IMG/VR virus record: IMGVR_UViG_2526164599_000008 | DNA from: a virus | Taxonomy: Duplodnaviria > Heunggongvirae > Uroviricota > Caudoviricetes | DNA length: 36,480 bases | Strand: one strand, 5' to 3' | Shown here: one piece after another, positions 8,101-33,135 of the stretch | Layout of the letters: each line of letters begins with the position of its first letter | Numbering within the stretch: the stretch's first letter is position 1 | Made by a program: the position numbers and the translations under genes | The notes under the pieces: generated by a model | Seen by the model: only the letters and a program-made list of their open reading frames with translations | The model's database searches: none | Told to the model about the DNA's origin: nothing

Positions 8101-8103
8101 TGG

Positions 8104-9015: not shown

Positions 9016-9025
9016 TGATTACTCC

Positions 9026-9561: not shown

Positions 9562-9643
9562 CGTGTTCCTGTTAGGTTATGATGTACTCTATTGGGTCTA
9601 TTGTACACACCCAAATGAGTGTGTCAAATTGAGATATGTTCAA
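9562..9643. promoter_or_regulatory. Divergent early promoter/operator region between ner-like and repressor genes
   Basis: About 80-bp intergenic region containing the inverted repeat ACACAC-N8-GTGTGT (around 9606..9625), a candidate operator. Confidence 0.45.
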
Positions 9644-10051
9644 ATGAGTACAAAAGAGAGATTGCGTGAAGTGATGGATGCTAATGGCATGACAATAAAG
9701 GCATTATCTAACTTATCAAAAATTCCATATCGCTCACTTCAAAACTATTTGCGTGGAGAGAGAGAACCAAACGCAGAGGCTCTTGTTGCGCTAAGCACCC
9801 ATTTGGGTGTATCGATCGATTGGCTACTTACCGGTAAAGAACATATTCCATCTAAAGAAATTGTTGCTGTACCAACACAACATCAATTCAGCCCGTCAGA
9901 CCTTAAAATGCTTGAACTTCTAAACCAGTTAGATCCTGAGGTTCGGCGAGATCTCATGCGAGGCGCTGAAGAAAAACAGCGTGTGATTGAGATGGAAAAA
10001 CAACTGAAGGAATTATCCGCAACGATTGAGCGGTTAAAAAATGTGGGTTAA
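9644..10051 (+). CDS. Immunity repressor, XRE-family HTH (Mu c-like role)
   Basis: Track ORF 9548..10051 trimmed to the ATG at 9644 (MSTKERLREVMDANGMTIKALSNLSKIPYRSLQNYL), a classic HTH_3 pattern. Divergent from the early operon. Confidence 0.65.
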   Translation: MSTKERLREVMDANGMTIKALSNLSKIPYRSLQNYLRGEREPNAEALVALSTHLGVSIDWLLTGKEHIPSKEIVAVPTQHQFSPSDLKMLELLNQLDPEVRRDLMRGAEEKQRVIEMEKQLKELSATIERLKNVG

Positions 10052-10121
10052 TGTGTTCCTAACGAGAACATATAGCAGAAATTATTTGCCATTAAGCAAT
10101 AAAAAATAAGGTGGATAGCTA

Positions 10122-11129: not shown

Positions 11130-11131
11130 TC

Positions 11132-13097: not shown

Positions 13098-13344
13098 AAT
13101 CTGTAAGCCTTTTACAATTATAAAAAATATGGCAGGCTAGTCTGGTCTCGCGAGACTGACTGAACCTCGGTCGGCTCACAGCGCATTCCTGTGGGGCGAT
13201 GGCCAGCCCGGTGTTCGGGTACCGGGCTGGTCGTTCTTTCAAAGTCATCATGCAGTGCACGTTTACATCTTCACTATTAACGCTGTTTAAAATCCGTATC
13301 CCGCCACATTTGTGATGCTGTCTCCACCAAACGAGGAGACACAC
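13098..13344. promoter_or_regulatory. Intergenic region upstream of the lysis/late operon; candidate late promoter
   Basis: About 250 bp non-coding. Contains the 12-bp palindrome GTCTCGCGAGAC and the stem-loop CCAGCCCGGT...ACCGGGCTGG. AGGAG Shine-Dalgarno before the ATG at 13345. Confidence 0.4.
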
Positions 13345-13695
13345 ATGAAAAACCTGAAAAAATTCATTCCCCCTGTTAAAAAACCTCGCCTCAGCGGCTG
13401 GCTGCTGACCTCAGTGCTGTTGCTGGGCATCATCGCTCTGGTCTCGCCACAGCAGTTGCCTGTTGTGATCTACAAGCTGGCACTTATCACGCTGGCAGCA
13501 GTGCTGGGTTACTGGCTTGACCGTTCGCTCTTCCCCAAAGCCCGTCCCGGTCAGTACCTGAAACATGACGACAGGCTGATGGCTGAAGGGCGTTTCCCGG
13601 TACAGACCGGCCTTCACCTGGTGTTTTCTGCTGCGTTAATCCGCCGTGCACTGATTGTTGCAGCGGTCTGCCTGGCTGTGGCAACAGGACTGTGA
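13345..13695 (+). CDS. Holin-like small membrane protein
   Basis: Track ORF 13312..13695 trimmed to the ATG at 13345. About 116 aa with two or three hydrophobic helices. Sits immediately upstream of the endolysin. Confidence 0.45.
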   Translation: MKNLKKFIPPVKKPRLSGWLLTSVLLLGIIALVSPQQLPVVIYKLALITLAAVLGYWLDRSLFPKARPGQYLKHDDRLMAEGRFPVQTGLHLVFSAALIRRALIVAAVCLAVATGL

Positions 13696-14426
13696 CCATG
13701 AACTGGCCTCAAATCACCCTCATTATTCTGTTCGCCTTTGGTCTGGGCGTAACCGCCATCAGACACGGAGAACCACGTAACGATAAATACAGCTTCTGGT
13801 GGCAGCTTGCTGGCAACCTGGTGATTGTCTGGCTGCTCTGGTGTGGCGGCTTTTTCAGCCAGGCATGCGCAGCGCAGCCCCCGCAGGCTGCGCTGCAGTA
13901 TCGCGATGATGTGATCCGTAATGCCCGGCTTGAATGGGGACTGTCTGCGCCGGTGGCCGATTTCGCCGCGCAACTGCATCAGGAAAGCGGCTGGCGACCT
14001 GATGCGATCTCGCCGGCTGGCGCTCAGGGACTGGCGCAGTTCATGCCTGCCACTGCCGACTGGATAAGCCAGTTGATACCGATGCTGAGCAGTCGTGAGC
14101 CGTTTAATCCGGCATGGGCTATCCGGGCGCTGGTCAGCTATGACCGCTGGCTGTGGCAGCGTGTCAGCGCCGCCAGTGACTGCGAGCGTATGGCCATGAC
14201 ACTGTCGGGCTATAACGGTGGTCTGGGCTGGGTACAACGGGACAGGCGGCTTGCATCACAGAAAGGTCTGGACAGCACCCGCTGGTTCGGACATGTCGCC
14301 ACGGTGAATGCCGGACGCAATGCGGCCAGCTGGCGGGAGAACCGCCATTATCCGCAGCGCATCCTGCGCGAACTGGCACCGCGATATCTCACATGGGGAG
14401 GCAGCAGTTGTGCGGCATCTGGTTAA
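13692..14426 (+). CDS. Endolysin, lytic transglycosylase (SLT domain), possibly signal-anchor-release type
   Basis: SLT signature ESGWRPDAISPAGAQGLAQFMPATA. Hydrophobic N-terminus ITLIILFAFGLGVTAI. Overlaps the upstream stop. Confidence 0.75.
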   Translation: MTMNWPQITLIILFAFGLGVTAIRHGEPRNDKYSFWWQLAGNLVIVWLLWCGGFFSQACAAQPPQAALQYRDDVIRNARLEWGLSAPVADFAAQLHQESGWRPDAISPAGAQGLAQFMPATADWISQLIPMLSSREPFNPAWAIRALVSYDRWLWQRVSAASDCERMAMTLSGYNGGLGWVQRDRRLASQKGLDSTRWFGHVATVNAGRNAASWRENRHYPQRILRELAPRYLTWGGSSCAASG

Positions 14427-15060
14427 AAAGCTGCCGTGGCGCGGCATTCTGCTGGCCATTCTTATCAATGCCTTTCTGGTCGGCCTGTATGCCATGGGAT
14501 ACAGAAGTGGTCATGACTCTGCAAAGCGTGACGGTGATACCGCGCTCAGTCAGTTGCAGTCAGCATTTGACGCGTACAAAACGGAGCAGGCAACGCTTGA
14601 GAATGCTGCGCTGCGGGCCTGGGCCAGACGGTATCAGGAGCAGGTGGCCGCCGGGCAGCGGGCTGAAGCCGGTTATCTTGAGCAGATTGCTCAACTGGAG
14701 AGCCGGAACAAACAACTACAGGGGCAAATTAACGATGTCACACAGCGCTGGATTGATGAAAAAGGTAAGAGCCATCCCATTGAGTGCGTGTTTACTCGCG
14801 GTTTCGTGCGCCAGTACAACGCCGCACTCGGATATGACAACGCATCCGTCGACACCGGTCATTCAGACTCAGTTGCCGCCGCTGGCACCCGCTCTGGCAC
14901 AGCGACCGGGCAACCTGAAACCACTGACACCCGGTTACGCGATTCGGGTGTCTCCCAGCGTGACGTTCTCGCCAACATCATCGACAACGCAGGACAATGT
15001 CGTCGCTGGCGGAACCAGATAAACGCGTTACTGGATGAACGGGAAGGATTACAGAAATGA
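14410..15060 (+). CDS. i-spanin (Rz-like)
   Basis: Track ORF 14308..15060 trimmed to a GTG at 14410 preceded by GGGGAGG. N-terminal TM helix ILLAILINAFLVGLYAM followed by a coiled-coil-like region. Immediately follows the endolysin. Confidence 0.6.
   Translation: MRHLVKKLPWRGILLAILINAFLVGLYAMGYRSGHDSAKRDGDTALSQLQSAFDAYKTEQATLENAALRAWARRYQEQVAAGQRAEAGYLEQIAQLESRNKQLQGQINDVTQRWIDEKGKSHPIECVFTRGFVRQYNAALGYDNASVDTGHSDSVAAAGTRSGTATGQPETTDTRLRDSGVSQRDVLANIIDNAGQCRRWRNQINALLDEREGLQK
14756..15022 (+). CDS. o-spanin (Rz1-like lipoprotein) embedded in the +1 frame of the i-spanin gene
   Basis: Internal ATG of track ORF 14393..15022. MKKVRAIPLSACLLAVSCAS carries a lipobox (AVSC). Pro-rich mature part. 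Wholly contained in the i-spanin gene. Confidence 0.6.
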   Translation: MKKVRAIPLSACLLAVSCASTTPHSDMTTHPSTPVIQTQLPPLAPALAQRPGNLKPLTPGYAIRVSPSVTFSPTSSTTQDNVVAGGTR

Positions 15061-15383
15061 CACTGCAGGTTGAATTCTGGACGGTGGTGAGTTTTCTGCT
15101 CACCTTCATGGGGTTTGTGGGAGGGCTCGCCAAATGGTTGTTCAGTAAAACAGAAGAACGCCAGGCGGCACGATTCGCCTCCCTTGAACAGGCCCTGCAA
15201 CAGTCCGCCTCCAACTGGGGCGAGCTGGAAAAAGAATTTATGCGATTTAAAGCGGATTTACCGCTGAATTATGTCCGTCGCGAGGATTATATCCGTGGCC
15301 AGACAGTCATCGAGGCCAAACTGGACGCGCTTTATAACAAACTGGAAGTGGTACAGCAGTACCGCAATACCGGAGGTCAATAA
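15057..15383 (+). CDS. Hypothetical membrane-anchored protein
   Basis: 108 aa with N-terminal TM helix and coiled coil. Overlaps the upstream stop. Confidence 0.45.
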   Translation: MTLQVEFWTVVSFLLTFMGFVGGLAKWLFSKTEERQAARFASLEQALQQSASNWGELEKEFMRFKADLPLNYVRREDYIRGQTVIEAKLDALYNKLEVVQQYRNTGGQ

Positions 15384-15694
15384 TGGTCGATATTACCCGG
15401 GTACGCCGCGAATCCCTGCGCTGGAGTTTGCTGGTTGCCCTGAACAAAACCCGCCCTTACACCGCCAGTGAAACGTTGCTGCTGGACGTGTCCCGCGCCA
15501 TCTACCCGGACACCACACCGCTGGAACTGCGCCGCGAACTGGATTATCTGGCTGACCGTAAAATGGTTGAGCTGGAGAAAAAACCTTCTGGCGACTGGTT
15601 TGCTGACCTGACCCGCCTCGGCGTAGACCTGGTGGAATACACCGTGGAATGTGGTCCGGGTATTGCCCGCCCGGAAAAGTACTGGAGTGAATAA
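15383..15694 (+). CDS. Hypothetical late protein
   Basis: 103-aa ORF, coupled to its neighbours, upstream of the terminase genes. Confidence 0.45.
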   Translation: MVDITRVRRESLRWSLLVALNKTRPYTASETLLLDVSRAIYPDTTPLELRRELDYLADRKMVELEKKPSGDWFADLTRLGVDLVEYTVECGPGIARPEKYWSE

Positions 15695-16239
15695 TGGCCA
15701 GACGCAGCACAATAGAAAAGCTGCCGGAAGACGTGCGCCGCTGGCTTGAACGGGCGCTGACTGAATCCGGCTTCAGCGGGTATAACGAGCTGGAGTCCCT
15801 GCTGCGTGAGCGGGGGTACGTCATCAGCAAATCCGCTATCCATCGCTATGGACAGAAGATTGAGCGCCGCTATGGTGCTATCCGTGCGGCAACAGAAGCG
15901 GCCCGCATGCTGACCGAAGGCGCAGCAGACGATCAGGATGCGCGTTCGGAGGCTGTGATAGCCCTTATTCAGACCGAGCTGTTCGAGAGTATTGTCCAGT
16001 TGCAGGAGGCGGAAGAAGGTGAAGTCGATCCTAAAGAACGCGTGGCCCTGCTGTCGAAGGTGGCGAAGAATGTGGCTACGCTGTCCCGCGCGTCCGTCAA
16101 CCTCAAAAAGTTCCAGTCTGAAGTACGGGCCAGAGCGCAGCAGGCAGCCAGCAACGCCGAGAAAATTGCCCGTAAGGGGGGACTGTCAAGCGACGCAGTA
16201 CAGGCGCTTCGTCGCGAGATTCTGGGGATTGCCACATGA
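15694..16239 (+). CDS. Terminase small subunit (Mu gp27-like)
   Basis: 181 aa, directly upstream of the large terminase. Basic N-terminal region, helical. Confidence 0.5.
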   Translation: MARRSTIEKLPEDVRRWLERALTESGFSGYNELESLLRERGYVISKSAIHRYGQKIERRYGAIRAATEAARMLTEGAADDQDARSEAVIALIQTELFESIVQLQEAEEGEVDPKERVALLSKVAKNVATLSRASVNLKKFQSEVRARAQQAASNAEKIARKGGLSSDAVQALRREILGIAT

Positions 16240-17831
16240 CAAAATCATCCGGAGTGATTTTAAACGCCGCTGGCGGCGGCCCCGAAGGGATGAGTCCCAT
16301 GGACGGGAGGAATAACCTTGCTCCCGTTTTGCCTGATACCTCGGCGCTGGATGCCCCTCCCGTTCTGTTGCCTTACCAGCAGCGCTGGGTGGCAGACACC
16401 TCTCCGCTTAAGGTGATAGAAAAGAGCCGTCGTACCGGTATTACATGGGCTGAGGCATCCGATAACGTACTGACCGCCGCCTCTTCTGCGCCAGCAGGCG
16501 GGATGAATGTGTATTACATCGCTTATAACCAGGACATGACCGTCGAATACATTCAGGCGTGTGCGATGTGGGCACGGGCATTCAACTATGCGGCCAGTGA
16601 AATTGAAGAAGGATTCTGGGAAGAGGACGACGACGACAAACACATCAGGACTTACACCATCAAATTTCCTGACTCCGGCTTTCGTATTGTTGCGCTCTCC
16701 AGCCGCCCGTCTAACCTGCGTGGCCGTCAGGGTATTATTGTTATCGACGAAGCGGCGTTCCATGAGCAACTGGACGAACTGCTGAAAGCGGCGCTGGCGA
16801 TGCTTATCTGGGGGGGAAAGGTACGCGTTATCTCCACCCATAACGGTGACGACAATCCGTTCAATACGCTTATCGGGGATATCCGTGCCGGACGTCAGGG
16901 AGGCAGCATACATCGCATCACTTTCCGGGAAGCCGTATCTGAGGGGCTGTTCCGGCGCGTCTGTCTGCGCACCGGGAAGGAATGGTCGGAGGCATCCGAG
17001 CAGGCCTGGATGGCATCGGTGTACAAATTCTACGGTGCCGGCGCATCCGAAGAGCTTGACTGTATTCCGGCCAACGGTGGCGGTGCCTGGCTGTCCCGTG
17101 CCCTGATAGAGTCCCGCATGTCCGCTGATACGCCGGTATTGCGTCTGACCTGCAAGGAAGGTTATGAACTGCTGTCTGATGAGGTTCGCTTCCGCGAGAC
17201 GCAGGACTGGCTTGATGAGTATCTGAAACCCTTGCTGGAGGCACTCCCCACTGATGCCCGCTCTTTCCTGGGGCGCGACTTTGGCCGTAGCGGTGATTTG
17301 TCGGTGGACTATCCCCTGCTGCAGGAGAAGAACCTGGTACGACGCGTGCCATTCGTACTGGAGCTGCGTAACGTGCCGTTCAGACAGCAGGAGCAAATCA
17401 CCTGGTATCTGATGGATGGCCTGCCCGGTCTGCTGGGTGCAGCGTTTGATGCCCGTGGTAATGGTGCCTATCTGGCTGAATACGCCATGCAGCGCTACGG
17501 CTCCAGCCGGGTTCAGCAGGTGATGCCAACCGAAGGCTGGTACCGGGAGCATATGCCTCCGGTCAAAGCTGCACTGGAAGACGGTAACCTGGTGGACTTA
17601 CCAAAGGATGAAGACACACTGGATGACCTGCGGGCCGTTCAGGTGGTGAACGGTGTCCCCCGCGTACCGGAGCAACGCTCAAAAGCAAAGGCTGACGGTG
17701 GTAAACGCCACGGGGATTCAGCCATCGCACTGGCGCTGGCGTATTTCGCCAGCCGTGAAATTAACAAAGGGCCGGTGAAGGCAAGCTCACGCCGTCGTCG
17801 TCAGGCGGCCCGTATGCTGGAGGGATTCTGA
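16236..17831 (+). CDS. Terminase large subunit (Mu gp28-like)
   Basis: 531 aa. Position between the small terminase and portal. Acidic patch EEDDDDKH. Size typical of large terminases. Confidence 0.7.
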   Translation: MTKSSGVILNAAGGGPEGMSPMDGRNNLAPVLPDTSALDAPPVLLPYQQRWVADTSPLKVIEKSRRTGITWAEASDNVLTAASSAPAGGMNVYYIAYNQDMTVEYIQACAMWARAFNYAASEIEEGFWEEDDDDKHIRTYTIKFPDSGFRIVALSSRPSNLRGRQGIIVIDEAAFHEQLDELLKAALAMLIWGGKVRVISTHNGDDNPFNTLIGDIRAGRQGGSIHRITFREAVSEGLFRRVCLRTGKEWSEASEQAWMASVYKFYGAGASEELDCIPANGGGAWLSRALIESRMSADTPVLRLTCKEGYELLSDEVRFRETQDWLDEYLKPLLEALPTDARSFLGRDFGRSGDLSVDYPLLQEKNLVRRVPFVLELRNVPFRQQEQITWYLMDGLPGLLGAAFDARGNGAYLAEYAMQRYGSSRVQQVMPTEGWYREHMPPVKAALEDGNLVDLPKDEDTLDDLRAVQVVNGVPRVPEQRSKAKADGGKRHGDSAIALALAYFASREINKGPVKASSRRRRQAARMLEGF

Positions 17832-19327
17832 TGGCGAGGGGTATCTGGGTTTCACCCGATGAATTTGTTGCTTTTTCTGAGCCTCAGAAATCACTGACCG
17901 CGCAGATTGCCTCCCGCAGCCGCGCGATCGACTTTTACGGACTGGGCATGTATCTGCCCAATCCTGATCCCATTCTCAAGGCTCAGGGACGGGATATCCG
18001 TATCTACCGCGAACTGCGCACCGACCCGCTGGTCGGGGGCTGTATCCGCAGACGTAAAGCAGCGCTTAAATCGCTGGAGCGTGGACTGGAGCGTGGTCAC
18101 GCCTCTGCCCGGGTCTTCCGTTTCATCCGCGACATGCTCGACGATCTGGATCTGTCCCGCATCATCGGTGAAATGAGCGATGCCGTGCTCTACGGGTATC
18201 AGCCCTGTGAAATCATGTGGGGCCGTTCGGTCAGGTCGTGGGCGGTGACGGATATTGTCGGCAAACCGCCTGAGTGGTTTCAGTTTGATACGGACAACTG
18301 CCTGCGCTTCCGGGCGCGTGATGCGGGTGTGGAGGGTGAGCTGCTGTCACCGTCAAAATTCGTGGTGCCGGCACAGGATGCCTCGTATGACAATCCTTAC
18401 GGTTTCCCGGACCTGTCCATGTGCTTCTGGCCGGTCGCCTTCAAGAAAGGCGGGATGAAATTCTGGCTCCGCTTTGCCGAAAAGTTTGGCTCCCCGTGGG
18501 TGATCGGTAAGCACCCGAGGGGTGCAAATGATGCAGAGATTGAAAAACTGCTGGACTCCATGGAGCAGATGGTGGAGGACGCGGTGGCCGCCATCCCCGA
18601 TGACAGCAGCATCGAACTCAAAGCCGCGGATGGTAAGGCGGACAGCAGCGAGGTATTCCGCGAGCTGATCACACTGTCACGCAGTGAGATCTCCATTGCA
18701 TTACTCGGTCAGAATCAGACCACGGAAGCGAACAGTAACAAGGCCTCTGCACAGGCCGGGCTGGAGGTAACGGCTGATATCCGCGATGCGGATGCGGACA
18801 TCATTCAGGCGGCAGTGAATCAGGTCATCAGAACGGTGGTCACCCTGAACTTCGGCGATGTGCCGTGTCCGGTCTGGGCCATGTGGGAACAGGAGGCCAT
18901 TGATGACACCCGTGCCACCCGCGACGAAAAACTCACCCGGGCGGGTCTGCGTCTGACCCCGCAGTACTTCAAGCGTGAGTACCAACTGCAGGACGGCGAT
19001 ATTGACGAGACACCACCGTCGGAACGACAGAATAACATGCTGCCGCTGTCATTTGCCGAGGCGATTGATGCTGATATTCAGGCTCAGCAGCAGCTTGACG
19101 ACGCGCTGGACATTCTGATGAACGGAGGCGCGTTAAATGGCACGCTGGAACCCGTCCTGGCACCTCTGTTCAGGCGGGTCGAAAATGGGGTTAACCCGTC
19201 TGAGCTGCTGGGCGAACTGGCGGAGCTCTACCCTCAGATGAACACGGACGATCTGCAGGAGCGGCTGGCCCGCATTCTCTTTGTGACAAATATCTGGGGG
19301 CGTCTGCATGAGCGTGACAACGGCTGA
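17831..19327 (+). CDS. Portal protein (Mu gp29-like)
   Basis: 498 aa, immediately after the terminase. Size and order as in Mu-like head modules. Confidence 0.65.
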   Translation: MARGIWVSPDEFVAFSEPQKSLTAQIASRSRAIDFYGLGMYLPNPDPILKAQGRDIRIYRELRTDPLVGGCIRRRKAALKSLERGLERGHASARVFRFIRDMLDDLDLSRIIGEMSDAVLYGYQPCEIMWGRSVRSWAVTDIVGKPPEWFQFDTDNCLRFRARDAGVEGELLSPSKFVVPAQDASYDNPYGFPDLSMCFWPVAFKKGGMKFWLRFAEKFGSPWVIGKHPRGANDAEIEKLLDSMEQMVEDAVAAIPDDSSIELKAADGKADSSEVFRELITLSRSEISIALLGQNQTTEANSNKASAQAGLEVTADIRDADADIIQAAVNQVIRTVVTLNFGDVPCPVWAMWEQEAIDDTRATRDEKLTRAGLRLTPQYFKREYQLQDGDIDETPPSERQNNMLPLSFAEAIDADIQAQQQLDDALDILMNGGALNGTLEPVLAPLFRRVENGVNPSELLGELAELYPQMNTDDLQERLARILFVTNIWGRLHERDNG

Positions 19328-20129
19328 ACTGGCGTACTGCATGACGCTTCCCCCGAAGCGGGCAATCAACTACCTGAAGTCCAAAGGGTATCAGATTACC
19401 TGGGACTGGGAAGAAATGTGGCAGGAGGCCCATGCCCGCGCCTTTACCGTTGCTAAAGTGACCCGCCTGGATATCCTGGAAGATATTCGCGGGGCACTGC
19501 AGCAGGCTGTCGATGAAGGAAAAACCGATCGCTGGTTCCGGCAGGAGCTGGAGCCGGTGCTGAAGCGTAAGGGATGGTGGGGACCACGTGACACGACTGA
19601 CCCGGTAACGGGTGAGCCAGTCACCATTCAGCAGGGCAGTCCGTGGCGGCTCGATACCATCTTTCGCACCAATATGTCCGTACTCTACAGCGCCGGTCGT
19701 TGGGCGGAACAGATGGAAAACGTCGACGACAGGCCGTACTGGATGTATACCGGCATCAACGACAGCCATACCCGCAGGAGCCATCTGGCGCTGCATGGTC
19801 TGGTGCTGCGCTGGGATGACCCGTTCTGGCAGGCATTTTACCCGCCGAACGGCTGGCGCTGCCGCTGTAGTGTGATTGCCCTGAGTGCGGCGGATGTACG
19901 TGCCCGTGGCCTGAAGGTTATCAGCTCCGGCTCTGCCATGGGCCAGGAACTGAAACTGGTCTCAGAGAAAACCGGCGAAATGCGGAACGTGGCCACCTTT
20001 AATACCGGCACCACGAAGGTGACCACCGACGTCGGCTGGTCTTATGCACCGGGGGCAGCATACCGTCCCGACCTGGCCCGCTATCAGGGTACGCTTCAGC
20101 CACTGGCACAACAGGAACTGAGAGGATAA
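19308..20129 (+). CDS. Head morphogenesis protein (Mu F-like)
   Basis: 273 aa. Conserved block DSHTRRSHLALHGLVLRWDDPFW...GWRCRCSV matches the Mu F-family signature from memory. Confidence 0.65.
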   Translation: MSVTTAELAYCMTLPPKRAINYLKSKGYQITWDWEEMWQEAHARAFTVAKVTRLDILEDIRGALQQAVDEGKTDRWFRQELEPVLKRKGWWGPRDTTDPVTGEPVTIQQGSPWRLDTIFRTNMSVLYSAGRWAEQMENVDDRPYWMYTGINDSHTRRSHLALHGLVLRWDDPFWQAFYPPNGWRCRCSVIALSAADVRARGLKVISSGSAMGQELKLVSEKTGEMRNVATFNTGTTKVTTDVGWSYAPGAAYRPDLARYQGTLQPLAQQELRG

Positions 20130-20131
20130 CA

Positions 20132-20590
20132 ATGGCTTCCGATAACCTGGTCAGTATCACCATTAACGATAAATCCCTGCGCCGGAGCCTCCGTGCGCTG
20201 GATCTTGCTGCCACAGACCTGGAGCCCGCGATGCGCAAAATTGCCGGAACCCTGCTGGCGGAAACACAGTTTAACTTTCTTGATGAGGGGCGTCCGGGGT
20301 GGATGCCCTCGCTGGCAGCGGAAGAGCGTGACGGGCAGACACTGCAGGATACCGGGCGTCTGATGGGGTCAGTATCAACCGACCATGACGACCGGCAGGC
20401 TGTTGTGGGGACCAACGTTGTTTACGGTGCCATTCACCAGTTCGGGGGTAAAACGGGGCGTAATGAGTCTGTTGAACTTCCGGCCCGCCCGTTCCTGCCG
20501 GTGACGGGGGATGGAGAACTACAGCCTGAAGTGGTAATCCCCATCCTCGATACCATTGTCCGCCATCTTGAATCAGCGGCCCGTCGCTGA
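20132..20590 (+). CDS. Virion morphogenesis protein (Mu G-like)
   Basis: 152 aa following the F-like gene, as in Mu. Confidence 0.5.
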   Translation: MASDNLVSITINDKSLRRSLRALDLAATDLEPAMRKIAGTLLAETQFNFLDEGRPGWMPSLAAEERDGQTLQDTGRLMGSVSTDHDDRQAVVGTNVVYGAIHQFGGKTGRNESVELPARPFLPVTGDGELQPEVVIPILDTIVRHLESAARR

Positions 20591-20804
20591 GTTTTCTCTC
20601 TTCAGGCGGGTGATTTATCATTGCCAGCGAATGAGGGGCTGTATTACCTTTATAAAGGCTTTACAGCCTCTGTTTTATAACCGCCTCCGGTTCACCGTAT
20701 TGCTTTCCCTGTCCTTCTCCCCTGATGTTTTCTAAAGCAGATTAAAATCGCCGGGCCTGCATTTCTCACAAACTGTCTCCGACAACATAACGCGGGACAG
20801 CAAA
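20591..20804. promoter_or_regulatory. Intergenic gap in the head module with nested palindrome; candidate late promoter and/or terminator
   Basis: About 214 bp non-coding. GGCTGTA...CCTTTATAAAGG...TACAGCC followed by CTGTTTTAT. Mu has a C-dependent promoter upstream of gene I at the equivalent position. Confidence 0.4.
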
Positions 20805-21920
20805 ATGTCAGCCATTCACATTTTTAAAGCCGGTACTCATACCGATATGCACGGCAAAAAACTGCCGTTCACGCCAGACGATCTTGCCGCCTGCGTGAAA
20901 GCCTATGACCCGTCCGTCCATGAAGCACCACTCGTGATTGGTCATCCCAGAACGGAAGACCCGGCGTGGGGCTGGGTGAAAGCCCTGTCGCTCAGCGGCG
21001 TCGATCTGATGGCAGAGCCTGCCCAGCTGGACCCGCAGTTTGCTGAGATGGTCACCGACGGACGATTCAAAAAAGTGTCCGCCTCTTTCTACCTCCCGGA
21101 TTCACCGTCCAATCCGAAGCCCGGCGTGCTCTACCTGCGCCATGTGGGCTTTCTCGGGGCACAGCCACCTTCCGTCAAGGGGCTGAAACAGGTGTCCTTC
21201 AGTGAGCAGGAAGAAGGTGTGGTGGAGTTCGCCGACTGGCAGGCCATCACGAATGCCTCCCTGTGGGGAAAGCTGCGCGATTTTCTGATCGCCCGCTTCA
21301 GTCTGGACGAAGCAGAAAAAGTCCTGCCGGAATGGCAGCTCAACAATCTGCGCGAAGAGGCGTACCGCGACACACCGTCGCAGGATGCAGCAGGTGCGCA
21401 ATTCAGTGAGACAGGCCAGGTGCCGTCTTCCGCAAGTAACGAGGAATCATCGATGACAAAAGAAGAGATTGAAGCCCTTCAGGAGGAGAACCGCCGCCTG
21501 AAGCAGCAGGCTGCTGATCGCGATGCGCGTGATGCACAGGTCAGACAGGAGCAACTGCATAAGGACAATGTGGCCTTTGCAGAAAAACTGGTCGCAGAGG
21601 GCCGTCTGGCTCCCCGCGCCTCCTCCGTGGTGGTTGCCCTGCTGGATGCCGTCGCCGGTGGCGACAAGCCGGTGGAGTTTGCTGAGGGGGAAAGCCGCAC
21701 ACCGCTGGCCACCGCCTTTCGTTCATTGCTCTCCGACGGGGAGCCGGTGATGAATTTCGCCGAACAGGCCACAAAAGAGCGTGTCGGCGACACGGTGAAG
21801 GTGGATGTGGCAGAGTTTGCGGAAGCCGATCCTGAGCGTCTGGCCCTGCATCAGAAAGCAGTGGCCCTGTCCAAAAAAGAAGGCATCAGCTATGAGGCTG
21901 CTGTCGCACGCTGCCTGTAA
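20805..21920 (+). CDS. Head maturation protease / scaffold (Mu I-like)
   Basis: 371 aa, N-terminal region resembles Mu I. C-terminal half is charged and helical (scaffold-like). Confidence 0.6.
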   Translation: MSAIHIFKAGTHTDMHGKKLPFTPDDLAACVKAYDPSVHEAPLVIGHPRTEDPAWGWVKALSLSGVDLMAEPAQLDPQFAEMVTDGRFKKVSASFYLPDSPSNPKPGVLYLRHVGFLGAQPPSVKGLKQVSFSEQEEGVVEFADWQAITNASLWGKLRDFLIARFSLDEAEKVLPEWQLNNLREEAYRDTPSQDAAGAQFSETGQVPSSASNEESSMTKEEIEALQEENRRLKQQAADRDARDAQVRQEQLHKDNVAFAEKLVAEGRLAPRASSVVVALLDAVAGGDKPVEFAEGESRTPLATAFRSLLSDGEPVMNFAEQATKERVGDTVKVDVAEFAEADPERLALHQKAVALSKKEGISYEAAVARCL

Positions 21921-21934
21921 TTTAAGGAGAGAGC

Positions 21935-22888
21935 ATGTCTGATTACTTAAAAGGTAAACGTGTCGTTGATCCGGTACTGACCAGTATCGCCCGTGGCTAT
22001 AAAAATGCCGCATTCATCGGCGAACGTATTTTCCCCGTCGTGCTGACGGACAAGGAAGGCGTGCGTGTACCGACCTTCGGGAAAACCGCCTTTGTGGAAT
22101 ATGACACCGAGCGTGCCGTCGGGGCGGACAGCAATGTTCTGGTTCGTGAAAAAACAGGCACGCTGGACCTGGTGCTGGGTGAACACGATCTGGCTGCGCC
22201 GGTGGACTATCGCGAGCAGGCGGAGTCCATGTTTAACGAAGAGAGCAAGGCCATCCGTCGCGCCACGAATGGCGTGAACCTGCGCCGTGAACTTATCGCT
22301 GCCCGTCTGGCTCAGGATGAAAAGGTCTACCGTACCGGGCACGTCAAAAAACTGACAGCCAGTGATCGCTGGGCCGGTGGTAAGGGGGACCCCATCGGGG
22401 TGATTGAAGCCGGTATGGAAGCGGTCCGTACGGCCACGGGGCTGCGTCCTAACCTGATGACCATGGGGGCCGGCGTGATGGCGCTGCTGAAGTTCCACCC
22501 GGCGATTCAGGCCGCCATCGGAGCCAACGAACGCAAGCGCATCACCACAGAAATCCTGCAGGACCTCTTTCAGATCGAAGAGATCGTCATCGGTGCCCCA
22601 GTCTCCCTGCCGTCCATGAAAGCGGCAATGGATAAGAACAGCGTGCCGGCGGATATCTGGGGAGACAATCTGATGCTGCACTATGTCGGCAAACCGCAGC
22701 CGGGGGCGGACAGCGCGGACGAGAACGAGCCGTCCTTCGGCTACACCCTGCGTCGTAAGGGGATGCCTGTTGCCGACAAATACGACGGAGCCGGTGGCAA
22801 GGTGAAGTACTGCCGTTATACCGATATCTACAAAGTCGCCGTGGTTGGTGGCGATGCCGGGTATCTCATTACCGGTATCAGTAAATAA
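21935..22888 (+). CDS. Major capsid protein
   Basis: 317 aa directly after the protease/scaffold, with a strong upstream AGGAG. Size typical of major head proteins. Confidence 0.7.
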   Translation: MSDYLKGKRVVDPVLTSIARGYKNAAFIGERIFPVVLTDKEGVRVPTFGKTAFVEYDTERAVGADSNVLVREKTGTLDLVLGEHDLAAPVDYREQAESMFNEESKAIRRATNGVNLRRELIAARLAQDEKVYRTGHVKKLTASDRWAGGKGDPIGVIEAGMEAVRTATGLRPNLMTMGAGVMALLKFHPAIQAAIGANERKRITTEILQDLFQIEEIVIGAPVSLPSMKAAMDKNSVPADIWGDNLMLHYVGKPQPGADSADENEPSFGYTLRRKGMPVADKYDGAGGKVKYCRYTDIYKVAVVGGDAGYLITGISK

Positions 22889-22897
22889 GGAGGCGTT

Positions 22898-23236
22898 ATG
22901 GGAACCACTCAGCAGGTCATTCTGATCACAACCGTAACGGCAGGGGCAGCACTGGCACAGCAGCGTTTTGTCGGGGCAGATAATACCCCCTGTAAAGCCG
23001 GTGCCGCAGCGCTCGGGGTTGCCGAAGTGGATGCTGTTACCGGCGACAGCACGCCGGTGAGCGTTCTGGGCATTATTGCTGTCGAGGCCGGGGCCGCTGT
23101 CAGCCGTGGTGTGGCTGTTCAGTCAGATGCTCAGGCCAGAGCCGTGCCGCAGTCCGGCGACGGTAAATCCTGTGGTATTGCACTTGATGAAGCCGGGGGT
23201 GAAGGCGACGTCATTCGTATCCTGCGCGGGGTGTGA
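22898..23236 (+). CDS. Small Ala/Gly/Val-rich head-associated protein
   Basis: 112-aa ORF just after the capsid gene, with GGAGG upstream. Confidence 0.4.
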   Translation: MGTTQQVILITTVTAGAALAQQRFVGADNTPCKAGAAALGVAEVDAVTGDSTPVSVLGIIAVEAGAAVSRGVAVQSDAQARAVPQSGDGKSCGIALDEAGGEGDVIRILRGV

Positions 23237-23237
23237 C

Positions 23238-23684
23238 ATGTACTGCACCCTGGAGGATTTGCTTGCGCAGGTGCCGGAGCGGACGCTTATCGAGCTCACC
23301 AGTGAAGAGATGGACTTCGACTCGCCTGCAACAGTGAATACCCGTGTGGTGGACAGCTGTATCCGCTATGCCGACGAGCTGATTGATGCCCATCTGCGCG
23401 GACGCTATATCCTGCCACTGGCAGAGATACCGACTGTTCTGCGGGACATTGCCATCACGCTGGTCCGTTACCGGCTCTACGCCCGCCGCCCGGAAGGTGA
23501 CCTCCCGGATACGGTGAAGGATGACCACAAAGAAGCGCTGCGGCAACTCAGGGAGTTACGTGATAACAGGCTCACGCTGGGGCTGCCGTCCACTCAGAAA
23601 GATGTGCCTGAGCCTGGCGAGTTTCGTGTACGCAGTCGCCCGGCCACTTTCGGCGGTCGTGACGGTTTACTGGAGAAATACTGA
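23238..23684 (+). CDS. Head-tail connector-type protein (Mu gp36-like)
   Basis: Track ORF 23076..23684 trimmed to the ATG at 23238, 1 nt after the upstream stop. MYCTLEDLLAQVPERTLIELT... Confidence 0.45.
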   Translation: MYCTLEDLLAQVPERTLIELTSEEMDFDSPATVNTRVVDSCIRYADELIDAHLRGRYILPLAEIPTVLRDIAITLVRYRLYARRPEGDLPDTVKDDHKEALRQLRELRDNRLTLGLPSTQKDVPEPGEFRVRSRPATFGGRDGLLEKY

Positions 23685-25816: not shown

Positions 25817-26337
25817 TGTCAAAGATTGAGATAAACCGCATCACGAATGCCAACATCTATCTGGATGGTACTAACCTGCTGGGACGGGCTGAGGAAGTTA
25901 AACTCCCCGATGTCTCCATGATTATGCAGGAACACAAGGCGCTGGGGATGGTGGGTAAGGTGGAACTCCCGGCTGGTTTTGACAAACTGGAAGGCGAAAT
26001 CAAATGGAACAGCTTTTACCGCGATGCGATGCTGTCTGCCGCTAACCCGTACAGGTCGCTGGCACTGCAGTGTCGTTCCAGCGTCCAGCGCTACAGCTCG
26101 CAGGGGCTGATTGACGAAATCCCGCTGGTCACCTTCCTGACGATTATGTTCAAGAAGAACCCTCTGGGGACGTTCAAACAGCACGAGAACGCCGAGTTCT
26201 CCAGTAGCTTCACCTGCACGTATATCAGACAGGTACTGGATGGTGAAGAGCTGCTGCAACTGGACTATCTGGCCAACATCTTCCGGGTCGGCGGTGTTGA
26301 TCAACTGACTGACTACCGTATCAATATCGGGGGCTGA
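25816..26337 (+). CDS. Tail tube protein
   Basis: 173 aa directly after the sheath gene. Confidence 0.7.
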   Translation: MSKIEINRITNANIYLDGTNLLGRAEEVKLPDVSMIMQEHKALGMVGKVELPAGFDKLEGEIKWNSFYRDAMLSAANPYRSLALQCRSSVQRYSSQGLIDEIPLVTFLTIMFKKNPLGTFKQHENAEFSSSFTCTYIRQVLDGEELLQLDYLANIFRVGGVDQLTDYRINIGG

Positions 26338-26339
26338 CG

Positions 26340-26621
26340 ATGAGTGTTGAACTGACGGATAAAGGAAGACGATGTGCGGCACTGGGCATGTCAAATGGTA
26401 CGTGGTTTACCCTCCTTGATATTCCGGGGGTGGAAACCCTTTTTAATACCCGTAAAACCAATGACCCGATTGACTGCACACGTTCAAAGGCCCGCAAACT
26501 GGCGGATTTGATTGAAGCATGGGAGCCTCCCGACCACTGGTTCTCCGGCACCGGCAAATCTGAGGGAAAGACGCTTCTCATCGCTTTCCTGCGTAACTGC
26601 AAGGGGTTTCGCACTTGCTGA
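26340..26621 (+). CDS. Hypothetical small protein
   Basis: 93 aa followed by the hairpin AGGGGC-TCCG-GCCCCT and a T-rich stretch. Confidence 0.4.
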   Translation: MSVELTDKGRRCAALGMSNGTWFTLLDIPGVETLFNTRKTNDPIDCTRSKARKLADLIEAWEPPDHWFSGTGKSEGKTLLIAFLRNCKGFRTC

Positions 26622-26718
26622 CATCACAGGGGCTCCGGCCCCTTCTTCTTAATCTCCTTTAATATCCGTCACGCGCTTCTCCCGACATACTGCCCTGAAC
26701 TTACACAGGAGCACAATC

Positions 26719-26991
26719 ATGTCACAGACCCCATCCGATACTTTTAAATTGTCTTATCCCTTCACCACTGCTGCAGGCACCAGAATTGAGCAGGTTGAAC
26801 TGAAACGCCTGACGGTAAAAGACCTGAAGCAGGTGCGCAAAATCAGCAAAAACCCGGCAGACTGGGACGAACCGCTGATTGCCCGCAGTACTGGTCTTCT
26901 CCCGGAAGATCTCGACAATATGGATCTGGCTGATTACCTGCAGTTACAGAAACGATTTCAGCTCATCACGGGGATGGGTGAGAGCAACTAG
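26719..26991 (+). CDS. Tail assembly chaperone (P2 gpE-like)
   Basis: 90 aa upstream of the tape measure. Overlapped by a second ORF, the hallmark of tail chaperone frameshift pairs. Confidence 0.6.
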   Translation: MSQTPSDTFKLSYPFTTAAGTRIEQVELKRLTVKDLKQVRKISKNPADWDEPLIARSTGLLPEDLDNMDLADYLQLQKRFQLITGMGESN

Positions 26992-27136
26992 GGCGCTGAC
27001 GCAGGCGCAGGGGCTGCTGGCGAGATGGTTCCGGTTTCAGCCGGGGGAGATTGATGCCCTCGATACTGACGATCTGGAGATGTGGCTGGAGCAGGCTGAA
27101 GAGCAAATAAAAAGCGAGTACGGCGACAAATCATAG
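26879..27136 (+). CDS. Frameshift extension of the tail assembly chaperone (E' equivalent), +1 frame relative to the chaperone
   Basis: Overlaps the chaperone ORF by 113 nt in the +1 frame and ends about 75 nt before the tape measure. Probably expressed only as a frameshift fusion. Confidence 0.5.
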   Translation: MPAVLVFSRKISTIWIWLITCSYRNDFSSSRGWVRATRALTQAQGLLARWFRFQPGEIDALDTDDLEMWLEQAEEQIKSEYGDKS

Positions 27137-32733: not shown

Positions 32734-32787
32734 GCTTTTTAAACGCCTTTAATATCAGCGTTCCCGCACGGGGGCAATACTGCCCCC

Positions 32788-33135
32788 ATGAAAACAACCT
32801 CAGTATTCTGGCAACCGACCCTGCAGGCTCCCGGCGAAATTGTCCGGGGGCTGGATGATATCCGGCAGGCGATTCAAATTATCCTGCGGACTCCCCGCGG
32901 CAGCGACCCGCATCGCCCGGAGTTCGGCAGCAATCTGCATCTTTATATCGACTGGCCTGTAGACCGGGCCATTCCGCATGTGGTGCGCGAATCCGTCGAT
33001 GCCATCCGGCGCTGGGAGCCCCGCTGCCAGCTTATGTCAGTTAAACCCGCCGTCGACGGCGAACATCTTACGCTCCGGGTGAGCTGGAAAGGCTCAGACG
33101 GACAGACCCGGACTCAGGAGCTGCTATGGCGCTGA
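32788..33135 (+). CDS. Baseplate protein W-like (gp25/GPW family)
   Basis: 115 aa. GLDDIRQAIQIILRTPRGSDPHRPEFGSNL matches the GPW/gp25 signature. Confidence 0.7.
   Translation: MKTTSVFWQPTLQAPGEIVRGLDDIRQAIQIILRTPRGSDPHRPEFGSNLHLYIDWPVDRAIPHVVRESVDAIRRWEPRCQLMSVKPAVDGEHLTLRVSWKGSDGQTRTQELLWR

Follow-up and report, generated by a model that had tools for sequence, protein, structure and literature searches.

The late region of a BcepMu-like transposable prophage of Escherichia coli, contained in a 36,480-nt stretch of DNA that we call the window, presents an exact repeat. The 11-mer CCTTTAATATC occurs on the plus strand at 26656-26666, inside the 97-nt gap upstream of the tail chaperone gene, and again on the plus strand at 32746-32756, inside the 54-nt gap upstream of a gene for a W/gp25-like baseplate protein (Table 1). 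What is this sequence doing in front of two different late genes? A reading made from the DNA alone, which we refer to as the sequence-only reading, had correctly located both copies and had offered two possibilities, a late promoter element or an activator binding site. Taken by itself the pair is unremarkable, the whole window holding 378 identical 11-mer pairs against around 170 in shuffled sequences. Among the five gaps of the late region, however, which total 833 nt, only about 0.08 shared 11-mer pairs are expected, and CCTTTAATATC is the only 11-mer common to any two of them. When one mismatch is permitted, there are 5 matches to the 11-mer compared with 0.38 expected.

The dyad and its four sites

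The two gaps, described by the sequence-only reading as otherwise dissimilar, have more in common than the 11-mer. In both of them it extends upstream to a 19-bp element (CTTAATCTCCTTTAATATC before the chaperone gene, TTTAAACGCCTTTAATATC before W) and in both the sequence ATACTGCCC starts exactly 20 nt past the last base of the motif. Rather than 11 bp, the element measures 19 bp and has two parts, and the window contains four copies of it rather than two. The 11-mer is the half proximal to the predicted promoter of an A/T-rich imperfect dyad whose consensus, T-yyy-TAAA-cc-n-CTTTAAWAKC, places two TTAA cores 10 bp apart. The corresponding pattern, TTWAA-N5-TTTAAWATC, has four occurrences on the late strand, which stand before the lysis genes, the head protease gene, the tail chaperone gene and the baseplate gene W. 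We refer to the predicted promoters at these places as Plys, PI, PE and PW, respectively.

The four sites were also recovered with a matrix (PWM) made from 39 sites upstream of W in relatives with W proteins 45-80% identical, and containing no sequence from the window. Scanned against both strands of the window, this matrix returns the four as its top four matches (Table 1), while the best unrelated score is 12.6 bits and the maximum scores of 200 shuffled sequences have a mean of 10.4 bits and a 95th percentile of 15.3. Since the Plys site has dyad character, its reverse complement ranks fifth in the window, at 18.3 bits. The matrix scan found no copy of the site in the early control region at around 9560-9660. 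A composite pattern joining the motif to a downstream element, TTTAAWATC-N18-22-ATNCT, has 3 matches in the window compared with 0.00 expected; the Plys site is among those that fit it.

Table 1. Coordinates of the genes, predicted sites and structures discussed in the text.
Feature	Position	Strand	Remarks
Mor/C-family transcription activator gene, 129 aa	1533-1922	minus	Pfam PF08765 Mor, E=1.3e-43
Plys predicted activator site, ATTAACGCTGTTTAAAATC	13276-13294	plus	PWM 19.4 bits, rank 4 in window, both strands
Plys predicted -10 GATGCT (13314-13319), discriminator GTCTCC, predicted +1 A at 13326	13314-13326	plus	
PI (head operon) predicted activator site, TCTAAAGCAGATTAAAATC	20731-20749	plus	PWM 20.4 bits, rank 3; pattern search
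PI predicted -10 CAAACT (20769-20774), discriminator GTCTCC, predicted +1 near 20781	20769-20781	plus	
GC-rich hairpin AGGGGC-TCCG-GCCCCT, then TCTTCTTAAT	26628-26643	plus	top terminator-like match of scan
PE (tail chaperone) predicted activator site, CTTAATCTCCTTTAATATC	26648-26666	plus	PWM 28.5 bits, rank 2; includes 26656-26666
PE predicted -10 CATACT (26686-26691), discriminator GCCCTG, predicted +1 A at 26698	26686-26698	plus	
Tail chaperone gene	26719-26991		Pfam Phage_TAC_7, E=1.9e-22
PW (baseplate) predicted activator site, TTTAAACGCCTTTAATATC	32738-32756	plus	PWM 32.2 bits, rank 1; includes 32746-32756
Inverted repeat GGGGGCA-ATAC-TGCCCCC	32770-32787	plus	encloses predicted PW -10, ends at W start codon
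PW predicted -10 AATACT (32776-32781), discriminator GCCCCC, W ATG (32788-32790)	32776-32790	plus	
W/gp25-like baseplate gene	32788-33135		Pfam GPW_gp25

Conservation was assessed, as the sequence-only reading had proposed, by a search of related prophages, and here 70 loci, belonging to Enterobacterales, Burkholderiales, Neisseriales and others, carry the motif ahead of W. In all, 88 related loci (1.78 Mb), which by shared descent are not independent samples although the spacers between their conserved blocks have fully diverged, contain 189 sites on the late strand versus 28 on the other. Most of the former (150 of 189) lie no more than 200 nt upstream of a W, chaperone or protease gene, and in 184 a hexamer of the form.A...T stands exactly 19 nt past the site. 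A site is present upstream of the chaperone gene in 49 of the related loci, with the hexamer at 19 nt in every one, and an equivalent site upstream of the protease gene in 31. Within the family the half-site cores are nearly invariant.

The same late-operon placement recurs in phages of Pasteurella, Pseudomonas and Burkholderia. Pasteurella phage AFS-2018a carries CTTTAAAGCGCTTTAAAATC four times, and Pseudomonas phage Komp_PAO1_1 carries CTTTAAACCCGATTAAAAGCC four times, in each case before the lysis, protease, chaperone and W genes. The promoter layout is also seen in Salmonella, Pectobacterium, Photorhabdus, Xenorhabdus, Burkholderia, Chromobacterium and other genera, as well as in tail-only clusters resembling tailocins; sequence from the chaperone region is present in 641 of 5,426 complete E. 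coli genomes. Where morons have been inserted between V and W, as with a 3.3-kb gtr insertion in Salmonella and one of 364 bp in Ralstonia, the insertion is upstream of the site, which stays beside W. In Rhizobium phage RR1-B the same three places are occupied by copies of another palindrome.

Downstream hexamers and predicted starts

All four predicted late promoters in the window share one layout: the 19-bp site, 19 nt, a -10 hexamer, 6 nt and a purine. Among 158 unique promoters of the relatives, the hexamer has A at -11 and T at -7 in 97% of cases each, and the spacer is nearly without information. Counted from the predicted, not mapped, +1, the dyad spans -50 to -32 with its centre at around -42.5. 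Positions -35 to -30 of the four promoters read TATCAG, TATCCG, AATCCG and AATCGC, matching TTGACA at none or one of six positions, and a scan with the sigma-70 consensus called none of the four.

The predicted start positions, 13326, 20781, 26698 and 32788, are read from the -10 hexamers and may shift by 1-2 nt. Downstream of Plys there follows a holin gene, with a Shine-Dalgarno sequence GAGGAG at 13333-13338 and its ATG at 13346, the Pfam holin domain lying further downstream. The head protease (I-like) gene starts at 20805, after PI. From PE a 21-nt leader would include GGAG at 26708-26711 ahead of the chaperone ATG at 26719. In the one start-site map found for a BcepMu lysogen, from dRNA-seq of uninduced Burkholderia cenocepacia J2315 biofilms (PMC4603805, Table S3), no starts are listed at the predicted late promoters, the only late-strand starts of the prophage being upstream of gp20 and inside V. 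Since the lysogen was uninduced, these data neither support nor refute the predicted late starts.

Upstream of PE stands a GC-rich hairpin, which the sequence-only reading had put forward as a possible terminator of the preceding gene. This remains a plausible suggestion. The hairpin has 6 pairs, five of them G-C, a 4-nt loop and a folding energy of -12.8 kcal/mol (z=-2.6), and is followed by a tail, TCTTCTTAAT, which is T-rich but interrupted and extends into the PE activator site. GC-rich hairpins with T-rich tails but with other stems are found at the same place in four relatives, namely KP12, BcepMu, a Salmonella remnant and a Ralstonia phage. Relatives have cleaner T runs; BcepMu, for example, has GGCCCGCTTCGGCGGGCC followed by TTTTTT. 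The hairpin is the putative intrinsic terminator of the transcription unit for head, sheath and tube.

The candidate activator and other explanations

The protein most obviously suited to the four sites is encoded by the prophage itself. The final gene of the early minus-strand operon specifies a Mor/C-family activator that is 31% identical to Mu Mor and 37% identical to the C-terminal portion of Mu C, and that matches PDB entries 1rr7 (Mor) and 9l0x (C). A tblastn search found no second Mor/C homologue in the window. By analogy with Mu, the four dyad sites are probably bound by this Mor-like protein.

We consider it likely that the dyad is the docking site of a single Mor/C-family activator serving four late promoters, each with its -10 hexamer 19 bp downstream. 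On this model the activator, produced from the end of the early operon, would occupy the dyad, which is centred some 42.5 bp ahead of the start and overlaps the place where a -35 is missing, and would bring host sigma-70 RNA polymerase to a -10 of the form NAnACT exactly 19 bp downstream. The lysis, terminase and portal genes would then be read from Plys; those for head, sheath and tube from PI; the chaperone, the tape measure and the genes through V from PE; and the baseplate genes W, J and I, together with the fibre genes, from PW. The PI unit would be ended by the hairpin just upstream of the first copy of the 11-mer, while a transcript from PW would have the A of the W start codon as its first base, so that W would be translated leaderless.

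The layout matches that of the late promoters of phage Mu, in which a -10 hexamer occurs without a -35 and a 16-bp imperfect dyad centred at -43.5 lies within a 19-bp required region from -52 to -34 (PMC2582627). The predicted prophage promoters likewise would use host sigma-70, with a -10 in the absence of a -35 and with a dyad over the -35 region; dyad lengths are 16-19 bp in the two phages and the centres, at -43.5 in Mu and around -42.5 here, are close. Each phage has four serial promoters, those of the prophage being predicted, on one strand, before lysis, head (I) and tail or baseplate genes, and each encodes a Mor/C-family activator. The -10 regions are alike too, with TAGACTGCC at Mu Plys and CAAACTGAC at Mu PI compared with NAnACTGyC in the prophage, and the CAAACTG around the -10 of Mu PI is the same as in prophage PI.

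The binding sites, in contrast, differ, the prophage having TTAAA-N-CTTTAAWATC where Mu has C sites of a TTAT/ATAA type such as TTATGCCCCAATAA at Pmom. When the prophage-family matrix was run on the Mu genome nothing reached 14 bits, the best score being 11.3 and on the wrong strand. We could therefore reject the idea that this is a regulon of Mu C's own DNA specificity, since the Mu late promoter sequences differ and the matrix finds nothing in Mu. Other differences are that the prophage has one activator rather than a cascade of Mor and then C, that its tail promoters stand before the chaperone gene and W rather than before P and mom, and that one of its promoters is predicted to give a leaderless mRNA.

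Another parallel is the Mu middle promoter Pm, which is activated by Mor and in which the Mor site lies at -51 to -36 (PMC4287176). In Mu as in the prophage the gene for the activator concerned closes the early operon; there is a resemblance between the Pm region, GTAAAGCCGGTTAATCCGGCTTTTTTT, and BcepMu-type sites, GTAAAGCCGATTAAAAG; and at Pm, as at PE, the operon before it has a terminator-like hairpin that adjoins the activator site or overlaps with it. Unlike Pm, however, which is a single promoter for the next regulator C, the sites of the prophage appear to let its Mor-like protein drive the structural and lysis operons directly.

The set of sites is the expected Mu-style design in a relative and is conceptually not new. 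Our literature search, which did not take in the BcepMu genome paper of Summer et al. (2004, J Mol Biol), returned no described late promoters for BcepMu-like phages or related tailocins. The value of the sites lies in the operon map and activator regulon that they suggest for BcepMu-like transposable prophages, a common family. They indicate which operons one Mor-type switch would turn on; the consensus and the fixed spacing from site to hexamer can be used for annotating late promoters; and the elements that inducible phage or tailocin expression systems would need are indicated. The sites also help to explain why the gap between V and W tolerates insertions such as the gtr O-antigen modification operon, because, on this model, the baseplate genes downstream have a promoter of their own.

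The assignment to the Mor-like protein is made by analogy with Mu, and the site is unlike Mu C sites, so it could be asked whether the promoter layout is right but the dyad is bound by some other early protein of the phage or, in the manner of an UP element, by a host nucleoid protein. The A/T-rich site is of a kind, and in a position, where alpha-CTD/UP elements or IHF or Fis sites are often seen. We nevertheless regard such a binder as improbable. The site differs between phages but is uniform within each genome, which suggests that the specificity is encoded by the phage and not supplied by the host, and a shared host factor would have to span Escherichia, Burkholderia, Pasteurella and Pseudomonas. 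The sole Mor-family gene of the window, moreover, sits where Mu has mor. In a Salmonella tail-only remnant that keeps the site before W, the Mor gene has been retained together with the lysis and tail genes. TTAA cores 10 bp apart would also fit the contacts in two adjacent major grooves seen in cryo-EM complexes of Mor and C (bioRxiv 10.1101/2025.05.02.651988). Among other phage proteins, the repressor and Ner-type proteins are unlikely binders, as the site has no copy at around 9560-9660.

Another explanation, contained in the sequence-only reading, places the sigma-70 -10 hexamer within the motif itself, at TAATAT. Starts would then lie around 7 nt downstream, near 26672 and 32762. Both TAATAT and the TAAAAT of the other two sites in the window match TATAAT at five of six positions. 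Yet the sixth position, which falls in column -33, is T in only 63% of the 158 unique promoters and G in 34%, G-type examples being GATTAAAAGCC in Komp and GATTAAAAGACC in BcepMu; TTAAAAG is the reading at all four sites of Komp and at two of BcepMu. The A and T positions of the hexamer 19 nt downstream, in contrast, are conserved at 97%. A -10 inside the motif would account neither for the equally conserved upstream half-site nor for the 19-nt spacing in 184 of 189 sites or the fixed distance of 31-33 nt to the W ATG, has neither a -35 hexamer nor a TG extension upstream, and would give W a leader of around 25 nt with no Shine-Dalgarno sequence. TAATAT was accordingly rejected as the main -10, on the variability of its sixth position and the conservation of the downstream hexamer, and we think it improbable. 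Of the proposals in the sequence-only reading, then, that of a late promoter element stands, with the activator site the most likely of its two options, while the -10-like TAATAT that it pointed to inside the motif is probably not the -10. Since the TAAWAT half-site is itself a good -10 match in this phage, a start around 7 nt past it, perhaps a minor one, may nonetheless be used here.

The motif might instead act in RNA, as a boxA/nut-like antitermination signal or a processing signal at operon junctions in read-through transcripts. The boxA core, GCTCTTTAAC, has CTTTAA in common with the motif, all four copies would be transcribed on read-through from an upstream promoter, and the site at W is followed by a conserved hairpin. 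Against this, the strongest conserved partner of the site is a sigma-70 type -10 at exactly 19 nt, a spacing that argues for a geometric constraint at the level of DNA. The positions that define boxA (GCTC) are not those conserved here, Plys, as the first of the late promoters, is not preceded by a late operon, and no Rfam family matches anywhere in the window. With its conserved positions elsewhere and its spacing to the -10 fixed, a boxA/nut-like signal was rejected as very improbable.

That two A/T-rich intergenic stretches simply match by chance has, despite the frequency of identical 11-mer pairs in a 36-kb window, a negligible probability and was dismissed, given the low number of pairs expected among the late-region gaps, the return of both sites and two more as the best four by a matrix without window sequence, and the retention of the motif at both places over several bacterial orders while the flanks diverged.

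The start of gene W

No Shine-Dalgarno sequence and no alternative start codon is found in the region upstream of W, and the distance from the end of the site to the W ATG is held nearly constant, at 31 nt in 49 loci, 32 in 9, 33 in 11 and 30 in 1. The corresponding distances are variable elsewhere, ranging over 52-75 nt ahead of the chaperone gene and 35-60 nt ahead of the protease gene. In all 70 loci the -10 hexamer ends 6-8 nt ahead of the W ATG. From the lack of a Shine-Dalgarno sequence and the fixed distance, the W mRNA is predicted to be leaderless, with the A of the ATG (32788) as its +1.

There is a precedent in phage P2, where the promoter PV (V-W-J-I-H-G), activated by Ogr, is like PW in giving a P2-type baseplate and fibre operon its own late promoter. 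The V coding sequence of P2 begins right at the annotated transcription start, 10308, which implies a leaderless P2 mRNA, and the same is predicted for W in the prophage. P2 differs in that Ogr is a zinc-finger activator whose TGT-N12-ACA site, annotated at 10239-10266, lies at a greater distance upstream, and in that its operon begins with V, whereas V in the prophage belongs to the upstream operon and the promoter lies between V and W. A leaderless W mRNA, as predicted, would carry the P2 precedent to a second activator family.

The PW region also contains an inverted repeat (Table 1). The segment 32734-32800 folds with an energy of -19.3 kcal/mol (z=-3.2), and hairpins are found upstream of W in most of 45 unique relatives, with stems that differ and a mean z of -2.0. 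In the register of the Escherichia type covariation is modest, 73% of cells being paired compared with 68% after shuffling, and 5 of 7 pairs show double changes. RNAalifold gives a weak consensus of 3 pairs, as the register of the stem shifts between lineages.

A stable hairpin before the start codon is shared with T4 gene 25, a homologue in the gp25/W family. In T4 it reportedly lies directly upstream of the start codon, as described by Nivinskas et al. in 1999, and is said to bring a distant Shine-Dalgarno sequence near the AUG. The W hairpin, unlike that of T4, has no Shine-Dalgarno sequence upstream in any lineage and encloses the predicted -10 hexamer. The T4 gene 25/38 idea, in which the hairpin would bridge a split Shine-Dalgarno sequence, was rejected for W on this absence of any SD-like sequence upstream; the GGGGG of the 5' arm, 13 nt away from the AUG, is itself part of the stem. 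Translational coupling of W to V was also rejected, the two being separated here by the 54-nt gap and in Salmonella by 3.3 kb, where the upstream element is still kept.

It is conceivable, though we think it doubtful, that the inverted repeat at PW is an element in its own right, which would block translation of W from read-through transcripts or direct their processing to a 5'-terminal AUG. If that reading is true, leaderless mRNA would be the only form in which the baseplate and fibre operon is translated, and the repeat would mark a combined boundary of transcription and translation of a kind undescribed for Mu-like or P2-like tails. Inverted repeats of the PW type, with varied stems, are present in many lineages, in both prophages and tail-only, tailocin-like clusters.

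A repeated element and four predicted late promoters

The 11-bp string CCTTTAATATC occurs exactly at 26656-26666, upstream of the tail-chaperone gene (Pfam Phage_TAC_7), and at 32746-32756, upstream of the gp25/W-family baseplate gene, as the sequence-only reading had noted. Across the whole window an identical 11-mer pair means little (378 are present versus about 170 in shuffles); among the five late-region gaps, 833 nt in total, this is the only 11-mer common to any two, with around 0.08 pairs expected. Both copies are part of a 19-bp element reaching upstream, CTTAATCTCCTTTAATATC before the chaperone gene and TTTAAACGCCTTTAATATC before W, and exactly 19 nt past each element there is a -10-like hexamer with a C-rich stretch (CATACT-GCCCTG-A and AATACT-GCCCCC-A). 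The two gaps, initially described as otherwise dissimilar, thus have more in common than an 11-bp match, and the number of copies also proves to be four rather than two. The pattern TTTAAWATC-N18-22-ATNCT matches three times in the window versus 0.00 expected, the third instance being upstream of the holin gene, and a looser bipartite pattern gave a fourth site upstream of the head protease gene. We call the corresponding predicted promoters Plys (lysis), PI (head protease), PE (tail chaperone) and PW (baseplate W). They agree with TTGACA at 0-1 of six bases in the -35 positions, and none of them was called in a sigma-70 consensus scan.

Coordinates of predicted promoters and associated features (window positions unless a relative is named)
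Feature	Position	Strand	Sequence	Details
Plys	13276-13294	+	ATTAACGCTGTTTAAAATC	-10 GATGCT; discriminator GTCTCC; predicted +1 A 13326
PI	20731-20749	+	TCTAAAGCAGATTAAAATC	-10 CAAACT; discriminator GTCTCC; predicted +1 G 20781
PE	26648-26666	+	CTTAATCTCCTTTAATATC	-10 CATACT; discriminator GCCCTG; predicted +1 A 26698
PW	32738-32756	+	TTTAAACGCCTTTAATATC	-10 AATACT; discriminator GCCCCC; predicted +1 A 32788
Mor-family gene	1533-1922	-		Pfam PF08765, E=1.3e-43
93-codon ORF	26340-26621			Between tube gene and hairpin; weak DUF7739 match, below Pfam cut-off
Hairpin upstream of PE	26628-26643	+	AGGGGC-TCCG-GCCCCT	Top terminator-like match of scan; -12.8 kcal/mol
Inverted repeat at W start	32770-32787	+	GGGGGCA-ATAC-TGCCCCC	Encloses PW -10 hexamer, ends at ATG
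BcepMu protease promoter	7283-7333 (BcepMu)			-10-N6/7-ATG
Bise promoters	6157-6211, 9640-9694, 19701-19755 (Pseudomonas phage Bise)			-10-N6/7-ATG
Salmonella V-W insert region	18790-22116 (Infantis SARB27 locus)			STM4203-4219 region
Ralstonia V-W insert	19363-19714 (phage YO107_2)			364 bp

A position weight matrix was derived from 39 unique W-upstream sites in relatives whose W protein is 45-80% identical, with the window sequence excluded. When both window strands were scanned, the top four matches were the four promoter sites, at 32.2, 28.5, 20.4 and 19.4 bits. In fifth place came the Plys site in reverse complement, a reflection of its dyad character, and the best unrelated match reached 12.6 bits. 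In 200 shuffles the maximum score had a mean of 10.4 and a 95th percentile of 15.3. The same matrix found no match of at least 14 bits in Mu or in the P2 V-operon segment examined.

Conservation among relatives

Conservation was assessed in relatives from a phage collection (BcepMu, phiE255, KP12, a Ralstonia phage, two Pseudomonas phages, a Pasteurella phage, a Rhizobium phage and a Salmonella remnant) and in 80 prophage loci from a single scan of species-representative genomes. Genera among the latter are Erwinia, Pantoea, Pectobacterium, Brenneria, Photorhabdus, Xenorhabdus, Dickeya, Lonsdalea, Burkholderia, Chromobacterium, Iodobacter, Dechloromonas and Lysobacter. The motif search in related prophages that had been proposed finds it kept upstream of W in 70 loci, where the flanks are not conserved, and upstream of the chaperone gene in 49. 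Over 1.78 Mb, sites of at least 14 bits number 189 on the late strand versus 28 on the other; 150 of the 189 lie no more than 200 nt upstream of a W, chaperone or protease gene, and most of the remainder precede lysis or other head genes. A.A...T hexamer is found exactly 19 nt past the site in 184 of these 189 cases. As the matrix spanned the site columns only, conservation of the -10 is independent of site selection. Taken together, 158 unique promoters yield the consensus T(-52) yyy TAAa(-48 to -45) cc n CTTTAAWAKC(-41 to -32) for the site, followed by a near-uninformative spacer and then [G/C]AtA[C/A]T(-12 to -7), G, n and CCCC, with A(-11) and T(-7) each at 97%.

The TAATAT within the motif, originally suggested to be -10-like, is a good -10 match in the window. 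However, T is present at its sixth position in 63% of unique promoters versus 97% for the downstream hexamer, and, if TAATAT were the -10, nothing would account for the half-site upstream of it, for the unvarying 19-nt spacing or for the constant distance to the W ATG (see below). On these grounds we regard TAATAT as part of the putative activator site.

Divergent phages carry their own variants of the site, which recur within a genome at equivalent gene junctions: CTTTAAAGCGCTTTAAAATC four times in Pasteurella phage AFS-2018a, CTTTAAACCCGATTAAAAGCC four times in Pseudomonas phage Komp_PAO1_1 and a related site three times in Pseudomonas phage Bise. BcepMu has CTAAAGCCGATTAAAAGACC upstream of its holin and protease genes.

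A different repeated element is seen in a more distant relative, Rhizobium phage RR1-B (positions 6654, 13731 and 18768), where T-rich sequence follows a near-perfect palindrome, TGACCGGAACCGRGTTCCGGTCA, at three corresponding junctions, upstream of the protease, tape measure and W genes. It could serve as a terminator, as another kind of activator site, or as both.

Comparison with Mu and the proposed activator

The window has the gene order of the BcepMu family of transposable phages, and its late half is 98.8% identical to Escherichia phage PhiKM, classified as a Bcepmuvirus, and 87% to Klebsiella phage KP12. The early genes, on the minus strand, comprise transposase A and B, gam, gemA and, last, a Mor-family gene, the only one in the window, which shares 31% identity with Mu Mor and 37% with the C-terminal part of Mu C. 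The late genes start on the plus strand at about 13.3 kb and run from lysis, terminase, portal, homologues of Mu F and G, head protease and capsid to a P2-type tail cluster of sheath, tube, chaperone, tape measure, U, X, D, V, W, J, I and fibres. The prophage region (window 26300-27000 compared) is carried by 641 of 5,426 complete E. coli genomes, in most cases with at least 99% identity and never in more than three copies, and a definition of the regulon is useful for that reason. Three ORFs outside the conserved BcepMu backbone, 10122-11129 and 11132-12337 on the plus strand and 12327-13097 on the minus, separate the lysis promoter from a repressor-like gene (9548-10051) and are possible cargo or accessory genes.

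Mu late and middle promoters are used by host sigma-70 and have a -10 hexamer without a -35 (PMC2582627; PMC4287176). Their sites are 16-bp imperfect dyads centred at -43.5, and a 19-bp region from -52 to -34 is required for activation (PMC2582627). Mu C binds the dyad at Plys, PI, PP and Pmom (PMC2582627) and Mu Mor that at Pm, from -51 to -36 (PMC4287176). In cryo-EM structures of Mor and C activation complexes, two adjacent major grooves are contacted just upstream of the -35 region, and the activators touch alpha-CTD, sigma region 4 and the beta flap (bioRxiv 10.1101/2025.05.02.651988). The window sites, counted from the predicted start, span -50 to -32 with a centre near -42.5 and contain two TTAA cores 10 bp apart; the layout is that of the Mu late and middle promoters. 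The initial suggestion of a late-promoter or activator-site element was right in kind. The -10 regions of Mu Plys (TAGACTGCC) and PI (CAAACTGAC) also resemble those of the window, and the Mu Pm region, GTAAAGCCGGTTAATCC, resembles BcepMu-type sites, whereas the window site differs in sequence from the Mu C site.

The most economical reading is that a single Mor-like protein, made from the end of the early operon, would bind the four dyads and recruit RNA polymerase, giving a cascade of two steps, early to late, compared with three in Mu. Both this binding and the exact start sites are predictions. These would be Mu-type, Mor/C-dependent late promoters of the BcepMu lineage, set apart by their own site consensus, by a single activator and by a baseplate operon predicted to be leaderless; the mechanism is one that a specialist would already expect and no departure in kind from Mu-type promoters. 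The literature searched yielded no description of late promoters in BcepMu-like phages or related tailocin clusters, dRNA-seq tables for B. cenocepacia J2315, with its BcepMu prophage uninduced, contain no late starts, and no Rfam family matched in the window.

The start of W and neighbouring hairpins

Gene W is probably leaderless, its ATG being the +1. The site ends 31 nt before the W ATG in 49 loci, 32 in 9, 33 in 11 and 30 in 1, and in most loci the -10 hexamer ends 6 nt before it. Only a transcription start at the ATG itself would lead one to expect a distance this constant. Elsewhere the distance is 52-75 nt (chaperone promoter) or 35-60 nt (protease promoter), and those genes have ordinary leaders with Shine-Dalgarno sequences. 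No Shine-Dalgarno sequence precedes the W ATG in any lineage compared, and no alternative start codon was found. A precedent exists in P2: according to its RefSeq record, transcription of the V-W-J-I-H-G operon begins on base one of the V coding sequence. The -10-N6/7-ATG arrangement is seen too at the BcepMu protease promoter and at three promoters of Bise, where the ATGs likewise have no Shine-Dalgarno sequence. Leaderless late genes seem, judging from these arrangements, to recur in the BcepMu family and not to be special to W.

The gap between V and W serves as a site of foreign-gene insertion. The Salmonella LT2-type remnant has a 3.3-kb gtr operon (gtrA, a glycosyltransferase and a gtrC-like gene) here, bounded by copies of CCCGGTAAGCGCAGAAGCGCCACCGGGC, and the Ralstonia phage a shorter insert. 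In each case the activator site stays downstream of the insert and adjoins W, which fits a promoter that belongs to W. The Salmonella locus (8056-23416) lacks head, terminase and transposase genes but has a complete P2-type tail cluster, together with lysis genes and a gene of the Mor family; by its gene content it is a tail-only, tailocin-like remnant. It retains the activator site upstream of W, and its lysis genes have a degenerate upstream copy, TTATTAAAGCCCTTTTCGTTC, with GATACT 19 nt on.

The 67 nt around the inverted repeat at the W start fold with -19.3 kcal/mol (z=-3.2). Most of 45 unique relatives have a hairpin here (mean z -2.0) with different stems, such as GCGGC/GCCGC, AGCGCCA/TGGCGCT, GGCGAT/GTCGCC and GCCCTG/CAGGGC; formal covariation support is modest because the hairpin register shifts between lineages. 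A split Shine-Dalgarno device was considered and rejected, there being no SD-like sequence upstream of the hairpin.

The hairpin upstream of PE, already suspected to be a terminator, is terminator-like, and GC-rich hairpins with T-rich tails but other stems occupy the equivalent place in KP12, BcepMu, the Salmonella remnant and the Ralstonia phage. It is plausibly the intrinsic terminator of the head, sheath and tube unit. Its T-rich tail extends into the first half-site of PE; Mu has a similar arrangement at Pm, where the early terminator adjoins the Mor site. The 93-codon ORF before it is found only in E. coli/Klebsiella-type relatives, while in BcepMu, phiE255 and the Salmonella remnant the hairpin directly follows the tube gene; the ORF resembles a small gene inserted at this point.

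The gap separating the Mu G-like gene from the protease gene holds a further conserved element upstream of the PI site, at 20637-20680: a hairpin, GGCTGTA...TACAGCC, with a T run after it. BcepMu (7210-7240) and many other loci share the hairpin loop, TTTATAAAGGCTTTAC. The equivalent gap in Mu is occupied by the strong gyrase site (annotated at Mu 17879), and the element could act as a terminator, as a gyrase site, or as both.
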